Below are positions 3,414 through 16,097 of a stretch of DNA of 64,000 bases, one piece after another. The notes beneath the pieces are model-generated. The model saw only the letters and a list, made by a program, of their open reading frames with translations. It made no database searches and was not told the origin of the DNA. Numbering within the stretch: position 1 is the first letter of the stretch; each line of letters opens with the position of its first letter. The DNA is from an uncultured Dehalococcoidia bacterium (GTDB taxonomy: Bacteria; Chloroflexota; Dehalococcoidia; Lucifugimonadales; UBA3495): the NCBI GenBank assembly GCA_964502995.1, contig CAZCZB010000010.1, forward strand, positions 2,364 through 66,363, given 5' to 3'. The position numbers were made by a program, and so were the translations under genes.

Positions 3414-3830
3414 ATGAATCTGAACGTCCCGCTGTTGCAAATCTTCGATCCCGCCACCTACGCAGGAAACTGGCTGGCGGTGGTAATCGCCATCATCATC
3501 GCTCTCGCGGCCATCGGCGCGATGTTCGCAGGGTCGCAACTCCTTTCGGCTCGCCGCCGTTCTGCGGAAAAGTTGACCACCTACGAATGCGGAATCCCGC
3601 CCACTCCATTCGCCTGGTCCAACATCAACATCCGCTTTTACATCTTCGCCATTCTGTTCCTGATCTTCGACGTTGAGGCGGTGTTCCTGTTCCCGTGGGC
3701 GGTGGTGTTCATCCAGGAAAAGGCGGCCGGCAACCCGATACCGTTTTACGCCATGATCCTGTTCCTGGCCATGCTGTTCTTCGCCGTCATATACGGATGG
3801 CGCAAGGGGGTGCTGGATTGGCAGAAATAA
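3414..3830 (+). CDS. nuoA: NADH-quinone oxidoreductase subunit A
   Basis: Motifs YECGIPP and [12 protein letters not shown]; three predicted TM helices; first gene of the nuo cluster. Confidence 0.92.
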
Positions 3831-4420
3831 CCCCACAACCCGGCGACCCTGGGTCCCCCCTGGCACTGCCTCCGCAACCCACCGAGATCATACTCGGTAC
3901 CGGGAACCGTCCCGGCCCCAGCCTGCTCAATCAGGCTACCGACGGTCGCGTCCCGGGCGTCATAACCGCCACCACCGACCAGTTGTTCGCCATGGCGCGC
4001 AAGTCCTCGTTGTGGACCCTGAGTTTCGGCCTGGCCTGCTGCGCCATCGAGATGATCTCCACCTACATGGCCCACCACGACTTTGACCGTTTTGGGGTCG
4101 TAACCTGGCCTTCGCCCCGCCAGTCCGACGTGATGATAGTGGCCGGCACGGTGGTGAAAAAGATGGCGGAACCCATCCGCCTGCTCTACGAACAGATGCC
4201 GGAACCCAAGTGGGTCATCGCCATGGGCAGTTGCGCCACCAACGGCGGCCCCTACTACCGTTCCTACTCCGTGGTGATGGGTGTTGACCACATCATCCCG
4301 GTGGACGTGTACGTGCCGGGTTGTCCGCCGCGCCCGGAGGCCTTGCTTTACGGAATCCTGAAACTCCAGGAAAAGATCATGGCGGACGCAGGAGACAGCG
4401 GTGCCTCGACCCAGGCGTAA
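3818..4420 (+). CDS. nuoB: NADH-quinone oxidoreductase subunit B (N2 Fe-S subunit), with a Pro-rich N-terminal extension
   Basis: Motifs [21 protein letters not shown] and [11 protein letters not shown]. The start is placed at TTG 3818, which overlaps the nuoA stop and has AAGGGGG 7 nt upstream. The longer track ORF (3695) would lie inside nuoA. Start uncertain. Confidence 0.88.
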
Positions 4421-4931
4421 TGCCCCTGCGGAAGACGCCGAGCCGCCTCCCGATCCCGTCGAGTTGCTGCCGGCGGCTCGCCGGGCGACTCTGGACATAG
4501 CCGTTGCGACGCTTGGTAGTTGGTCTCCAACGCCGGGCGCTCTCGGAGACTTGCCGCAGATCACCGTGCCATCGGAGAGCATCGCGGCCGTCTGCACCGC
4601 CTGTCGGGACGATGCCAGCCTGGACTGCAAAATGCTCCTGTGTCTGGCGTGCGTCGATTATCAGGAACGGTTTGAGCTGGTCTATTTCCTGCATTCCCTC
4701 GCTTTGGAACACTCGCTGGTGGTGAAAACCACGGTGTCATACGACGCTCCGTCGCTGGCCACGGTTTCGGACGTATGGCCGGCCGCCGACTGGTACGAGC
4801 GCGAGGCCCATGATCTGTTCGGCGTCACATTCGACGGACATCCCGACCTTTCACCGCTGCTGCTCTACCCTGAGTTCGAGGGTTTCCCCGGCCGCAAAGA
4901 GTACGATTTCTACGATTACCGGGAGTTCTGA
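4401..4931 (+). CDS. nuoC: NADH-quinone oxidoreductase subunit C
   Basis: Motif [22 protein letters not shown]; GTG start with AGGAG 7 nt upstream; 20-nt overlap with nuoB. Confidence 0.9.
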
Positions 4932-4950
4932 CGTGACCCCGGCGCCCGAC

Positions 4951-5232
4951 ATGGAACAAGACACTCAGGACGGCACCGTCCATCTGACCGCCCGCGTGGC
5001 CAGCGATGGCGGCCGTTTCATCGCCACCGTCGATGGCATCGAATTGGAGGGCAGCGGCAATACGCCGGATGCGGCCCAGGAGTCTCTCGTGCAGGCCATG
5101 CGAAATTGGCTGGAACGAATGGATACCACCGGCAAGCTGGGCGAAACTCTGGGTCTCGAAACGCTGGAAGAAGAAACCGAAATCCTCCTGCAATTCGTGG
5201 ACCCGGAAGACCACGAGCAGGATTCCGACTGA
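4951..5232 (+). CDS. Small acidic HicB-like/UPF0150-fold protein embedded in the nuo operon
   Basis: The pattern VHLTARVASDGGRFIATVDGIELEGSGNTPDAAQESLVQAMRNWLE matches the beta-beta-beta-alpha layout of HicB-type antitoxin N-domains. An in-frame GTG at 4933 is an alternative start. Confidence 0.6.
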   Translation: MEQDTQDGTVHLTARVASDGGRFIATVDGIELEGSGNTPDAAQESLVQAMRNWLERMDTTGKLGETLGLETLEEETEILLQFVDPEDHEQDSD

Positions 5233-13798: not shown

Positions 13799-13824
13799 TT
13801 ACCGGAAACGGAAGTATCGAATCT

Positions 13825-14493
13825 ATGAAACACACATTTTCCTTGATCGTCTCGACGATATTGTTCCTGGCGGTCGCTTGCGGTTCGCCTGAGCCTGCTA
13901 TTCAAGAAGTGCAAGTTACCAGGATTATTGACCGGACGGTAGAGGTTAAGGTTACCGTACCCGTGACTCGCGTCATTGTGCAAACAGAAGAAAAAGAGGT
14001 GCCTGTACCAGTAACTCGCGTGGTTGAACAAACCGTCGAAGTTACCAGAGAGATTACCAAGGAGATTCCCATTACTGTGATCGTCACGCCAACCATGCCA
14101 CTGGTCACGCCAACTCCCATGCCTACCAATACCCCTCGTCCCACCGCTACCTTGCGACCAACGCCAACGCCAACGGTGTCGCTGAAGGAAACCACCCGCG
14201 CTAATTTGTGGGTGTATTTTACAAATGACGCTGAAAGGCTGGCGGTGTACGTCGATCCCGCGTTCGATGTGGATTCCTTCGAGCTCGACTTATTCGTTGA
14301 CGGAAAAGGGTATTGCAACACAGCCCGGATTTACGGCGACGACGGGGCACTAGAAATGAGTTGCGAGTACGAGTCGCGTCAACATTCTACGGTACAGCGT
14401 GTTTCCGCTCAAACACCGATCGGTGATCTCAGGTGCGAACGCAATGATGCGTCCGATTCCTACGAAACAGTTTACGCCTGCGCTTGGCGATAG
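13825..14493 (+). CDS. Predicted lipoprotein of unknown function, in a lower-GC insert between nuoM and nuoN
   Basis: Signal peptide plus lipobox (LFLAVAC|GS). Repeated V(T)VPVTRV(I/V)(V/E)QT units, a Pro/Thr linker (TPTPMPTNTPRPTATLRPTPTPT) and a Cys-containing C-terminal domain. Codon usage and GC are visibly different from the flanking nuo genes. Confidence 0.7.
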   Translation: MKHTFSLIVSTILFLAVACGSPEPAIQEVQVTRIIDRTVEVKVTVPVTRVIVQTEEKEVPVPVTRVVEQTVEVTREITKEIPITVIVTPTMPLVTPTPMPTNTPRPTATLRPTPTPTVSLKETTRANLWVYFTNDAERLAVYVDPAFDVDSFELDLFVDGKGYCNTARIYGDDGALEMSCEYESRQHSTVQRVSAQTPIGDLRCERNDASDSYETVYACAWR

Positions 14494-14540
14494 ATACAGG
14501 ATAAGCAACGAGTGCTCACTGGATACGATCAATTACAGCC

Positions 14541-16097
14541 ATGACCACCACCCTCACCACCAACCTCCACCTGCTGGCGCCGGAGTTCGCTCTGACCGCG
14601 TTGGCTTTCCTGGTGTTCACGGTGGACCTGTTCCTGCCTGAGCGCAGCAAAGAATGGCTGGCCGGCCTGTCGGTGATCAGCCTGGTTGCCGTGATGGTGA
14701 TTGCGCTGGTGATGCGGCCGGCCGGCAGCGTGGAGTTGTACGGCGGCCTGATCGTCGTGGACGATTTTGGCCTGTTCTTCAAGATATTCTTCCTCGGCAT
14801 CGGCATCGGCATCATCGCCCTCGCCTGGGAGTATGCCCGGGACCGTCTCCAGCACCGGGGGGAGTTCTACGGCCTGCTGCTGTTCTCCATCCTGGGCATG
14901 AACCTGATGGCAATGTCCCGCGAGTTGCTGACCGCATACATCTCGCTGGAACTGCTCTCGTTCAGCCTCTACGTGATGGTCGCCTATGGTTTGCGCGACG
15001 CGCGATCCAACGAGGCGGGCATCAAGTACATCATCATCGGCGCGCTGTCGTCGGCGTTCATGCTGTACGGACTCAGCAACATCTACACCGCGCTGGGTAC
15101 AACTTATTTCTCCGCAATCGCCGCCGAGCTTGCGTCGCCCGCCTCCGCAAGTCCGATCCTTTGGGTCGGCGTGGCGTTGCTGGTGGTGGGCCTGGGATTC
15201 AAACTGTCGGCCGTGCCGTTCCACATGTGGGCGCCCGACACCTACGAAGGCGCTCCCCTGCCGGTTACCGCCTACCTTGCCATCGGATCCAAGGCCGCCG
15301 CGTTCGCGCTGACCCTGCGGTTGTTCGCCGAAGCAATTGTCCCGGCCGTGGGCCTGTGGTCAGAGTGGCAATTGGTGATCGCAGTCCTGGCCGCCATCAC
15401 CATGGTGCTGGGCAACCTGGTGGCGTTGGCCCAGCGCAACCTGAAACGACTAATGGCATACAGCAGCATTGGGCACGTGGGTTACGCCCTGGCCGGCGTG
15501 GCCGTGCTGGGCAGCGATTTCGCGCTGGCGGCGAAGGGCGTGATTTTCTACCTGGTTGTCTACGCGGTCACGAATCTGGTCGTATTCGCCGGCGTAACCG
15601 CGTACTACAACCGCACCGGGCAGGACGACATTGCGGATCTGGCCGGACTGGCAGACCGCCAGCCGTTCACGGCGGCGGCCATCGCAATCGGTCTGTTCTC
15701 ACTGGCCGGCCTTCCGATATTTGCGGGATTCACCGCCAAGTTCTACCTGTTCGCAGCCGTCGCCGACGGCGGATTCATGTGGCTCGCCGGAGTCGCCATC
15801 GTCACCAGCCTGATCTCGCTTTACTACTACCTCCAGGTTATGCGGCAGATGTACATCGAGCCGGCGCCCGACTCCGGCCACCACGACGATGCCCACCAAA
15901 CCGATGCCGAGCACGAGGAAACCCACGGACATGGCGCTCATGAAGATCCCCCCGTTCCGACCATGCCGCGCCCGTCGTGGCTCCTGGCCGGAACCATGGG
16001 AATAGGACTGGTGGTGGTAACGTGGCTGGGAGTGTACCCGGCACCTCTGCTTGCCCTCATCGAATCCGCCAGCGCCGCCCTCCTGCCCTTGGGTTAG
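14541..16097 (+). CDS. nuoN: NADH-quinone oxidoreductase subunit N
   Basis: KLSAVPFHMWAPDTYEGAPLPVTAYL; last gene of the cluster. It has a His/Asp-rich insert (GHHDDAHQTDAEHEETHGHGAHED) near the C-terminus. Confidence 0.9.
   Translation: MTTTLTTNLHLLAPEFALTALAFLVFTVDLFLPERSKEWLAGLSVISLVAVMVIALVMRPAGSVELYGGLIVVDDFGLFFKIFFLGIGIGIIALAWEYARDRLQHRGEFYGLLLFSILGMNLMAMSRELLTAYISLELLSFSLYVMVAYGLRDARSNEAGIKYIIIGALSSAFMLYGLSNIYTALGTTYFSAIAAELASPASASPILWVGVALLVVGLGFKLSAVPFHMWAPDTYEGAPLPVTAYLAIGSKAAAFALTLRLFAEAIVPAVGLWSEWQLVIAVLAAITMVLGNLVALAQRNLKRLMAYSSIGHVGYALAGVAVLGSDFALAAKGVIFYLVVYAVTNLVVFAGVTAYYNRTGQDDIADLAGLADRQPFTAAAIAIGLFSLAGLPIFAGFTAKFYLFAAVADGGFMWLAGVAIVTSLISLYYYLQVMRQMYIEPAPDSGHHDDAHQTDAEHEETHGHGAHEDPPVPTMPRPSWLLAGTMGIGLVVVTWLGVYPAPLLALIESASAALLPLG

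Follow-up and report, generated by a model that had tools for sequence, protein, structure and literature searches.

Five extra genes in a NuoEFG-less complex I-type operon of SAR202-type Dehalococcoidia

The 64-kb stretch of DNA analysed here (the window) carries eleven nuo genes with five unrelated genes set among them, all on the plus strand and in the order nuoA-B-C-(s1, s2)-D-H-(Uma2)-I-(CysLys)-J-K-L-M-(lipoprotein)-N (Table 1). This order and strand had been proposed in a first-pass annotation and were borne out when all eleven nuo genes were assigned with Pfam and NCBIfam. The overlap of nuoD with nuoH that it had reported (GTGA, 6694-6697) is seen on direct reading of the sequence, and its view that the locus encodes an 11-subunit enzyme of the complex I type and leaves no space for NuoEFG is supported; the five unrelated embedded genes are genuine ORFs, on the plus strand like the nuo genes, and all five have homologs in other genomes. 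Gene boundaries were corrected in places: nuoH ends at 7806, the ORF reaching 7856 being in a different frame, and s1 probably starts at GTG 4933, two bases past the nuoC stop, where public gene calls also place it (99 aa), with ATG 4951 as the alternative. All 80 of the closest NuoD loci come from Dehalococcoidia or SAR202 MAGs, and the locus is a nuoABCDHIJKLMN complex I-type operon of SAR202-type Dehalococcoidia.

Table 1. Genes and candidate promoter of the nuo locus (positions in the window)
Feature	Position	Strand	Assignment
candidate operon promoter	3343..3371	+	TTGACA-17-TACGAT with upstream TG, 43 bases 5' of nuoA
nuoA	3414..3830	+	PF00507, 8e-32
nuoB	3797..4420	+	PF01058, 5e-30; NF005012, 242 bits
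nuoC	4401..4931	+	PF00329, 3e-37; 176 aa in public assemblies
s1	4933..5232	+	HicB-family (UPF0150-like) small protein, toxin-less
s2	5236..5538	+	HicB-family (UPF0150-like) small protein, toxin-less
nuoD	5561..6697	+	PF00346, 1e-92
nuoH	6694..7806	+	PF00146, 2e-109; GTG start overlaps nuoD TGA stop
Uma2	7853..8443	+	PF05685, 1.5e-23
nuoI	8446..8982	+	Fer4 families; NuoI NCBIfam models
CysLys	9015..9320	+	orphan 101-aa basic protein
nuoJ (start uncertain)	9451..9990	+	PF00499, 4e-36
nuoK	10003..10323	+	PF00420, 1e-27
nuoL	10325..12262	+	PF00361 + PF00662
nuoM	12281..13798	+	PF00361, 5e-57
lipoprotein-like gene	13825..14493	+	signal peptide, FLAVAC
nuoN	14541..16097	+	PF00361, 2e-70

As far as the translations tell, the parts of the enzyme that reduce quinone and pump protons seem to be intact. 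NuoB, whose exact start is in doubt (its ORF is open from 3695, with a probable ATG at 3797), has a Pro-rich N-terminal extension of about 50 residues and the N2-cluster cysteines, which were read in a 14-residue motif and in GCPPRP. NuoD retains the His (HPSTHG) and Tyr (RLDY) of the quinone site, and NuoI contains two CxxCxxCxxxC [4Fe-4S] motifs. NuoD scored 480-502 bits against NuoD-type NCBIfam models, compared with 369 bits for FpoD and 355 bits for NdhH, the cut-off of which is 583.

In a consensus scan, the promoter-like site before nuoA was the best of six, with 3.3 expected by chance, and its identification as the operon promoter is suggestive only. Terminator-like sites were at chance level (12 found, 11 expected). 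Because the intergenic gaps are 2-130 bp and one promoter-like site lies 5' of nuoA, along with these chance-level terminators, a single transcription unit is suggested; given the tight spacing and the lack of terminators, the inserts would most likely be expressed via read-through from the nuo promoter.

We compared about 140 related loci overall, including the 80 closest NuoD loci (set 1; 47 close and 33 distant) and a separate outgroup set. In 78 of the 80 set-1 loci, the gap between nuoD and nuoH measures from -4 to 50 bp; it is about 581 bp in L077 and L079, where it contains two small unrelated ORFs, and at most 181 bp in the outgroup (n = 59). No nuoE, nuoF or nuoG was found in the operon or the rest of the window, and the 10-kb flanks of the 80 relatives contained no NuoEFG-like genes. 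Since nuoD adjoins nuoH across the approximately 140 loci, we judge the absence of nuoEFG from the operon to be ancestral in the lineage. The interrupted arrangement had been called unusual, which needs qualifying: interrupted nuo operons are the rule within the clade, and a NuoEFG-less nuo operon has already been described for Dehalococcoidia (PMC5736913, PMC4959651, PMC6005880).

The same eleven genes in the same order encode the 11-subunit enzymes of Dehalococcoidia and Firmicutes, such as those of Dehalococcoides mccartyi and Desulfitobacterium hafniense (PMC6005880, PMC5736913, PMC4959651, PMC11238625); there too, nuoH directly follows nuoD and the Q-module motifs are intact. The evolution of such 11-subunit complex I-like enzymes has been treated elsewhere (PMC3144371), and the legend of Fig. 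1 in PMC11238625 notes extra genes inside nuo transcription units of organohalide respirers. The present operon differs in being interrupted by five non-nuo genes, three of which are conserved across the whole clade; in relatives the number reaches about nine. The host lineages also differ, ours being one that we take to be aerobic and marine or sponge-associated, whereas the others are strict anaerobes.

The inserts fall into two groups by synteny, in line with the earlier guess that some are recent or selfish and others lineage-specific. When positions were compared among relatives, as the first-pass annotation had proposed, many close relatives lacked Uma2 and the lipoprotein-like gene at the corresponding positions, and s1, s2 and CysLys were position-conserved across the clade. 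The four inserts that allowed enough comparisons are under purifying selection (dN/dS 0.10-0.21; nuo genes, 0.02-0.11); the comparisons for the lipoprotein-like gene were too few, and it was left out.

We regard Uma2 and the lipoprotein-like gene, on this distribution, as young and variable arrivals. The former, present here as a single 'type A' copy, matches PF05685 with 83.6 bits (cut-off 27), the PADLOC candidate defence family PDC-S03 (1.1e-19) and the PDB entries 9y1l, 3ot2, 6okh and 1wdj. It resembles the Uma2 family (PF05685, DUF820) and PDC-S03 in its full-length match and restriction-endonuclease-like fold, but differs in its location between nuoH and nuoI, where relatives have 0-5 copies, of two types, in tandem. 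No copy exists in 11 of the 47 close loci or in any of the 33 distant loci, and 1-5 copies exist elsewhere; the copies within an array are 69-93% identical, which shows local duplication. The lipoprotein-like protein combines VTR/TVEV repeats with a Pro/Thr linker and a C-terminal domain rich in Cys, and no Pfam match was found. Homologs at the nuoM-nuoN junction occur in only three close loci (L006, L022 and L030), the gap there being about 12 bp in most relatives, and alignment of the junction with that of L033 reveals the gene as a clean cassette indel. With a GC3 of 0.556, against 0.70-0.87 for all its neighbors, this recent cassette is compositionally foreign.

The s1 and s2 genes, in contrast to this variable class, are fixed between nuoC and nuoD: s1 was found in all 80 set-1 loci and s2, the best conserved insert (53-88% identity), in 77, having been lost in L075, L077 and L079 with the nuo genes intact. 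The two proteins are paralogous (hhalign probability 93%, E 3.4e-7). Neither matches a Pfam model directly; a wide HicB-family HMM detects s1 at 2.5e-6 and s2 at 6.5e-23, an s1 HMM matches HicB-family proteins down to 2.6e-12, and the s2 profile grades over its full length into a HicB/UPF0150 family of about 88 aa, some sources labeling s2 homologs HicB antitoxin. The structural match is weak: for the AF2 model of s2 (pLDDT 79.5), the top Foldseek matches were 2yzt (E 0.41) and 3k6q (E 2.1), and none of 201 reached 0.001. Median dN/dS is 0.21 for s1 and 0.10 for s2, and s2 has a near-invariant surface stretch, YLEDCE..G.L..VLIEAGFYDN..W.S. The gene for the toxin HicA directly follows the hicB-family gene in three of four sampled family members, and these HicA-paired proteins of about 88 aa also lack a DNA-binding domain. 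No hicA was found in the window, its nuoC-nuoD gap or 1.6 Mb of related loci, in which HicB-family ORFs occur at the nuoC-nuoD junction only. On these similarities, we interpret s1 and s2 as an ancient, fixed tandem pair of toxin-less HicB-antitoxin homologs. It had been suggested that inserted genes could be electron-input factors, an idea that gains no support for any of the inserts; s1 and s2 are HicB homologs in which no redox-cofactor motif was found.

Type II HicAB systems with small HicB/UPF0150-like antitoxins have full-length sequence similarity to s1 and s2 and appear to share the HicB N-domain fold with them, and a real hicB-hicA pair is located at the nuoC-nuoD junction in a sister lineage. 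They differ in that s1 and s2 have no HicA partner, are two tandem paralogs instead of one HicB, are fixed in an essential respiratory operon and evolve slowly (dN/dS 0.10-0.21), unlike the patchy, fast-evolving modules. The outgroup operons are compact, with 11 genes and a median nuoC-nuoD gap of 16 bp (n = 67); hicB-hicA lies exactly between nuoC and nuoD in L091 and L131 and directly upstream of nuoD in L087, and L088 and L095 carry partial hicBA modules. Some junction modules in the sister lineage are interrupted or truncated, although some of these 'decay' states were seen on metagenome contigs of low coverage and may reflect misassembly. The s1/s2 pair would most likely descend from a hicB-hicA cassette after loss of the toxin and would since have been kept for some cellular role. 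Common descent of the pair and the sister-lineage genes from one insertion is not supported, because the latter rank 83-222 of 258 among the HicB relatives of s2 and are not its closest.

CysLys contains two H-x3-C-x-C-x2-C motifs (Cys6His2) separated by a Lys/Gly-rich linker. Both are conserved among its homologs, of which 88 were found, all unnamed; no match was found in Pfam, NCBIfam, PADLOC or PDB. The motifs, read by eye, suggest that the protein could bind metal, and it is predicted to be mostly disordered (AF2 pLDDT 52). CysLys is located between nuoI and nuoJ in 63 of the 80 loci, has been lost in about 13 with intact nuo genes, and has a median dN/dS of 0.11. We consider it ancient, fixed and maintained by purifying selection across the clade.

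With no NuoEFG in the operon, the electrons would have to reach NuoI from a partner whose gene lies elsewhere. This partner may be ferredoxin or another soluble carrier of low potential, or else a NuoEFG-like module that is not linked to the operon. It is rather unlikely, in our estimation, that the enzyme is an ordinary NADH dehydrogenase with nuoE, nuoF and nuoG elsewhere on the chromosome (a split operon) and no unknown input module. SAR202 bacteria are aerobic heterotrophs that need an outlet for NADH, which counts for such a split, as does the better fit of NuoD to Nuo-type than to Fpo-type or Ndh-type models. Some bacteria have one nuoEFG set unlinked to their nuo operons, and many Chloroflexi genomes have 13/14 subunits (PMC4453560). 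However, neither the window nor the 10-kb flanks of the 80 relatives contain a NuoEFG-like gene, separate 'nuoEFG' genes in other Dehalococcoidia and Firmicutes belonged to hydrogenases or formate dehydrogenases (PMC11238625), and the literature we searched says nothing on SAR202 regarding the location of nuoEFG.

Small subunits offer another comparison. Cyanobacterial and chloroplast NDH-1, a NuoEFG-less relative of complex I, is ferredoxin-dependent, and its lineage-specific small subunits NdhS, NdhO and NdhV build the donor docking site. It serves as a functional analogy (see also PMC3144371, PMC11238625), but NuoD here is of the Nuo type and not the NdhH type, and neither Pfam nor NCBIfam showed s1, s2 or CysLys to be homologous to any of the small Ndh subunits. 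In the complex I of Epsilonproteobacteria (Campylobacter, Helicobacter, Sulfurospirillum), as far as it is cited in PMC11238625, the places of nuoE and nuoF are taken by two unrelated genes, and the donor is flavodoxin or ferredoxin. By analogy, two small non-canonical genes in the hydrophilic-arm part of the operon would go with non-NADH input in both cases; according to the same source, however, the replacement genes lie between nuoD and nuoG and NuoG is kept, whereas here a pair of antitoxin homologs lies between nuoC and nuoD, and NuoG is missing.

It seems to us fairly improbable that s1, s2 and/or CysLys serve the SAR202 11-subunit complex as supernumerary subunits or as assembly factors. 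On that reading, an antitoxin fold that has been domesticated and a small protein that binds metal would be placed on NuoC, NuoD or NuoI and would perhaps shape the donor docking site. Small zinc-binding accessory subunits such as NDUFS6 do lie near the NuoI homolog in mitochondria and alpha-proteobacteria, and the clade-wide positions beside nuoC/nuoD and nuoI, dN/dS values of 0.10-0.11 that equal those of NuoC, NuoJ and NuoN, the surface stretch of s2, the lack of a nearby toxin partner, the confinement of HicB-family ORFs to one junction in 1.6 Mb and the paired motifs of CysLys would all agree with such a role. Nevertheless, operon position is the sole link to complex I, s2 and CysLys have been lost beside intact nuo genes, in outgroup lineages the same enzyme works with none of the three present, ordinary hicBA modules enter the same junction, s1 and s2 have no cofactor motif, and CysLys is mostly disordered by prediction. 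We also find it improbable, to a slightly greater degree, that s1 and s2 still act in toxin-antitoxin biology as orphan antitoxins that an essential operon expresses constitutively and that neutralize HicA encoded elsewhere or on mobile elements (anti-addiction). Their clear full-length HicB-family homology, the HicA-paired relatives that likewise lack a DNA-binding domain and the attraction of toxin-antitoxin and defence-type genes (HEPN pairs, Uma2) to the nuo operons of this clade favor this role, but HicA is absent from the window and the 1.6 Mb of related loci, and slow evolution with near-universal, long-term retention of two paralogs is unusual for such modules. The conservation of s1, s2 and CysLys at NuoC- or NuoN-like rates, atypical for toxin-antitoxin remnants, counts against regarding them as hitchhikers and would fit a role of their own, perhaps one tied to complex I itself.

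Taken together, we lean, somewhat beyond even confidence, toward a NuoEFG-less operon in which the five extra genes are hitchhikers of two age classes and do not belong to an input module. Individual relatives have HEPN-containing pairs, another Uma2-like gene, an fn3 protein and other small ORFs at nuo junctions. Small genes would have come to rest in the gaps between the genes of an operon that is long, essential and one-directional; judging from its occupants, this operon resembles a landing pad for genes of the toxin-antitoxin and defence types.

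The operon contains all eleven genes of the complex (nuoA, B, C, D, H, I, J, K, L, M and N) in one orientation, each with a Pfam match above the gathering score, and NuoB, NuoC, NuoD and NuoI are also matched by NCBIfam subunit models. The first-pass annotation had described the gene order, five embedded non-nuo genes and a GTGA at 6694–6697 in which the nuoD stop overlaps the nuoH start, and ORF listing, the Pfam and NCBIfam searches and direct reading of the sequence confirmed all of these. The embedded genes are two small genes between nuoC and nuoD (designated as s1 and s2), a Uma2 gene, a gene for a small Cys/Lys-rich protein (designated as CysLys) and a lipoprotein-like gene. 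Spacing within the operon is tight (2–130 bp) and a promoter-like site precedes nuoA; counts of terminator-like and internal promoter-like sites in the operon were at chance level. The inserts probably owe their expression to read-through that starts at the nuo promoter. The probable start of nuoB lies within nuoA, giving a 34-base overlap of the two genes, and NuoB (3797–3950) and NuoC (4401–4550) have Pro/Ala-rich N-terminal extensions of approximately 50 residues each that lie outside the family models.

Genes of the nuo operon and the five embedded genes, in window positions
Feature	Position	Strand	Basis
nuoA	3414–3830	+	ORF and Pfam
nuoB	~3797–4420	+	ORF and Pfam, NCBIfam
nuoC	4401–4931	+	ORF and Pfam, NCBIfam
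s1, small gene	4933/4951–5232	+	ORF
s2, small gene	5236–5538	+	ORF
nuoD	5561–6697	+	ORF and Pfam, NCBIfam
nuoH	6694–7806	+	ORF and Pfam
Uma2	7853–8443	+	ORF and Pfam
nuoI	8446–8982	+	ORF and Pfam, NCBIfam
CysLys	9015–9320	+	ORF
nuoJ	9451–9990	+	ORF and Pfam
nuoK	10003–10323	+	ORF and Pfam
nuoL	10325–12262	+	ORF and Pfam
nuoM	12281–13798	+	ORF and Pfam
lipoprotein-like gene	13825–14493	+	ORF
nuoN	14541–16097	+	ORF and Pfam

For comparison, we took the best 80 NuoD relatives among 185,579 species genomes (set 1, 47 close and 33 distant loci), all 80 of which are Dehalococcoidia or SAR202 MAGs with 79–96% NuoD identity; sponges are the source of many, and the Red Sea, Caspian, Baikal and Tanganyika of others. 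A metagenome scan with the NuoD of L087, a related locus on a 2.9-Mb contig, supplied an outgroup of 80 loci from a sister lineage, with NuoD 47–72% identical to that of the window. No nuoE, nuoF or nuoG was found in the operon or elsewhere in the 64-kb window, and the direct succession of nuoD and nuoH also holds in set 1 and in 59 loci of the outgroup. The absence of nuoEFG from the operon is ancestral, and the operon belongs to the known 11-subunit type. By eye, the Q-module motifs are retained in the translations: NuoD keeps the His and Tyr of the quinone site, NuoB the N2 cysteines, and NuoI two CxxCxxCxxxC [4Fe-4S] motifs. In cyanobacterial-type NDH-1 and archaeal Fpo, subunit D is of the NdhH or FpoD type, whereas the NuoD encoded here is Nuo-type: it scores 480–502 bits on the NCBIfam NuoD models, but only 355 bits on NdhH (cut-off 583) and 369 bits on FpoD (cut-off 600).

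[quoted passage not shown] The literature searched contained nothing specific on complex I or nuoEFG of SAR202. Electrons would enter the enzyme at NuoI, from a partner encoded elsewhere. As a possible redox partner within the window, the conserved upstream flavin-reductase gene (1466–2065) was considered; it is parted from nuoA by another gene and the promoter-like site, and the rest of the window holds chromosomal housekeeping genes (GAPDH, enolase, DnaB, RecA, RNase Y, RecJ, fatty-acid synthases and a TRAP transporter). The proposal that embedded genes might be electron-input factors found no support, as s1 and s2 proved to be toxin-less HicB homologues.

The window proteins were compared with the 80 set-1 loci by tblastn, together with measurement of the intergenic gaps. 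The comparison divided the inserts into those conserved in place (s1, s2 and CysLys) and those that vary (Uma2 and the lipoprotein-like gene), which bears out the earlier guess that some were recent or selfish and others lineage-specific. s1 lies between nuoC and nuoD in all 80 loci (33–74% identity; two by HMM only) and s2 in 77 (53–88% identity; missing from L075, L077 and L079), while CysLys lies between nuoI and nuoJ in 47 of 47 close loci and 16 more distant ones, a short I–J gap without it being found in about 13 loci. Median dN/dS values against the close loci were 0.21 for s1, 0.10 for s2, 0.11 for CysLys and 0.13 for Uma2, and those of the nuo genes were 0.02–0.11. The conserved inserts s1, s2 and CysLys are old, clade-specific and under selection, and Uma2 and the lipoprotein-like gene are young and variable. 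Searches for flanking repeats or target-site duplications around the inserts returned only chance or codon-bias matches.

The Uma2 protein matches PF05685 over its full length (83.6 bits against a cut-off of 27; profile positions 2–171 of 172) and the PADLOC candidate defence family PDC-S03 (1.1e-19), and its solved relatives (9y1l, 3ot2, 6okh and 1wdj) have the restriction-endonuclease fold. The gene is missing from 11 of the 47 close loci and from all 33 distant ones, and elsewhere occurs in arrays of one to five copies, with H–I gaps of approximately 635, 1260, 1866, 2500 and 3181 bp; examples are L039 (12914–15416) and L025 (12319–14757), both among the loci L001–L047. Copies of the window's type (type A) are 69–93% identical within an array, indicating local tandem duplication. 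A second type (type B), 33–36% identical to type A, always stands last, next to nuoI, and is 56–88% conserved between genomes. A genome-wide load of Uma2 genes was dismissed as the cause of the insert: there is just one in 64 kb, which makes the nuoH–nuoI junction look like a site chosen specifically.

Homologues of the lipoprotein-like gene occur at the nuoM–nuoN junction only in L006, L022 and L030; this gap is 12 bp in most loci, and alignment with the related locus L033 shows a clean cassette indel. Its GC3 is 0.556, in contrast to 0.70–0.87 for every neighbour. Judged by eye, the protein has a candidate N-terminal signal peptide, MKHTFSLIVSTILFLAVAC/GS, in which AVAC is an imperfect lipobox; the three homologues carry the canonical lipobox VTAC, and the window also encodes Lgt (38730–39674). 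No significant match was obtained in Pfam, NCBIfam, PADLOC or PDB sequence searches. Its Cys-rich C-terminal domain, which belongs to no Pfam family, recurs at the same junction, fused to a SurA_N-like domain in L006 (18893–20281) and duplicated in L022 (18318–19214).

CysLys has 88 homologues, all unnamed, and no match in Pfam, NCBIfam, PADLOC or PDB. A conserved motif, H-x3-C-x-C-x2-C, is repeated at both ends of the protein, and its AF2 model is largely disordered (pLDDT 52) and too poor for a fold search.

Neither s1 nor s2 has a direct match in Pfam or a significant one in NCBIfam, PADLOC or PDB sequence searches, and s2 has only 164 close homologues, all on SAR202-type contigs; some sources call these homologues HicB antitoxin or RNase H-like HicB nuclease. 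The exact s2 sequence also occurs in the sequencing runs SRR8304783, SRR22586458 and SRR22586461. Their family was recognized through profiles. Against 1.84 billion representatives, the s2 profile retrieved eight clusters at E ≤ 1e-30 and then a tail of approximately 88-aa proteins that align with s2 over its full length and weakly match UPF0150, HicB_lk_antitox and DUF7387; a profile built on this tail retrieved 1229 proteins named HicB family. A wide HicB-family HMM detects s2 at 6.5e-23 and s1 at 2.5e-6, reverse HMM searches reach 2.4e-26 and 2.6e-12, respectively, and hhalign (93%, E 3.4e-7) shows s1 and s2 to be paralogues. The AF2 model of s2 (pLDDT 79.5) comprises three strands, a long helix, a short helix and a hairpin, and in Foldseek it comes closest to 2yzt and to 3k6q, an antitoxin, both at weak E-values. 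The HMMs, along with these weak structural matches of s2, place a HicB/UPF0150-like N-terminal fold in both proteins. They share the antitoxin fold with the type II toxin-antitoxin system HicAB, but the adjacent HicA toxin is missing: tblastn with three HicA proteins detected no hicA (PF07927) in the C–D region, the whole window or the 80 loci (best E 0.23–0.29). With no adjacent HicA and a mere 22 bp between s2 and nuoD, the two proteins s1 and s2 count as HicB homologues without a toxin and not as a toxin-antitoxin system as defined. Within 1.66 Mb (the window and related loci), ORFs matched by the HicB HMM are confined to the nuoC–nuoD junction. An apparent in-frame fusion of s2 to NuoD in L049 and L059 was an artefact of ORF extension, as TAA and TGA stops are present.

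Three of the four distant HicB-family members sampled have a HicA toxin gene directly after them. The fourth, in L087, lies directly upstream of nuoD-H-I-J-K-L-M-N, with an uncalled, intact-looking hicA ORF in a 273-bp gap. In the outgroup, the operon is compact, with 11 genes, a median C–D gap of 16 bp (n = 67), D–H gaps of at most 181 bp (n = 59) and no inserts at the H–I, I–J and M–N junctions; s1, CysLys, Uma2 and the lipoprotein-like gene were not found there, and the s2 query matched only hicB genes at the C–D junction. A hicB-hicA pair stands exactly between nuoC and nuoD in L091 and L131, partial modules are found in L088 and L095, and several junction hicBA copies are truncated or interrupted. 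A single insertion shared by s2 and the hicB genes of this sister lineage was considered, but the latter rank only 83–222 of 258 in the HMM ranking against s2, which does not back a common origin. Because s2 has nearer relatives than these hicB genes, the nuoC–nuoD junction seems to be a landing site used repeatedly and not the place of one ancient shared insertion; judged from these rankings, independent insertion at a hot spot would be at least as likely. The probable ancestor of s1 and s2 is a toxin-antitoxin cassette from which the toxin was lost.

The persistence of s1, s2 and CysLys can be read in several ways. Their fixed positions beside subunit genes might mean that all three are true supernumerary subunits of complex I; we consider this unlikely. 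Slightly less probable still is that s1 and s2 are orphan antitoxins acting in trans. We rank above both the reading that the three genes are hitchhikers, kept for a role with no established tie to complex I. A proposal that we regard as doubtful is that the antitoxin fold was domesticated, such that the HicB pair, and possibly CysLys, would be clade-specific supernumerary subunits or assembly factors on NuoC, NuoD or NuoI, helping to dock the electron donor.

Other genes lie within or next to the operon in individual loci. HEPN proteins (PF05168, 4e-11) are encoded between s2 and nuoD in L011 (9079–9953) and L017 (8581–9922), each gene following a small ORF that occupies the place of a cognate nucleotidyltransferase, with two such pairs in tandem in L017. 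L011 also has a gene for an fn3-domain secreted protein between nuoC and s1, L025 a sporadic 324-aa Uma2-like insert, and L002 and L039 an ORF of 124–134 aa between nuoA and nuoB. In the Baikal-type loci L077 (11157–11691) and L079 (11111–11431), where s2 is absent, two small ORFs of 84 and 106 aa, neither matched by Pfam, lie between nuoD and nuoH and break the otherwise conserved D–H overlap. IS transposase genes (DDE_3 and DDE_Tnp_1) are situated directly upstream of hicB-hicA-nuoD in L087 (7491–9597), nuoABC is not within 10 kb, and an 82-aa coiled-coil and transmembrane protein with a weak DUF7310 match is encoded between nuoH and nuoI (12793–13041).

In the window, the operon is flanked upstream by the flavin-reductase-domain gene and a cytidylyltransferase-like gene (2167–3324; NadD-like by eye) and downstream by an SLOG/LDcluster4 gene (16182–16712) that overlaps the start of the enolase gene (16712–18013). 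These neighbours are syntenic with nuo in most set-1 loci; the flavin-reductase, cytidylyltransferase-like and SLOG/LDcluster4 genes had no match in the outgroup loci, where flanks are shorter. Just downstream of GAPDH, 19163–24001 (+) encodes a 1612-aa membrane protein with DUF2298 (1e-97) and a PMT_2 glycosyltransferase-like domain. Adjoining the replicative helicase DnaB (29459–30844, −) is a protein of 538 aa (27352–28968, −) that contains two AAA/IstB-DnaC-like ATPase modules and may be an unusual duplicated helicase loader. An 879-aa DctP-family TRAP solute-binding protein (60268–62907, −), whose DctP domain covers only residues 578–834 and leaves a long unexplained N-terminal region, is accompanied by a 560-aa DctM (56112–57794, −).

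The operon type was already known, while the literature searched gave no description of the landing-pad behaviour, of the orphan Cys-rich protein or of the conserved HicB pair without toxin. SAR202 bacteria are abundant in the ocean and in sponges. The analysis does away with the attractive notion that the inserts supply the missing input module, and it indicates that an essential respiratory operon can be a long-term harbour of toxin-antitoxin and defence-type genes, with a natural series that begins with intact hicBA, passes through modules in decay and ends in a fixed, slowly evolving toxin-less pair. s1, s2 and CysLys are now defined targets for proteomic and structural work on the enzyme.
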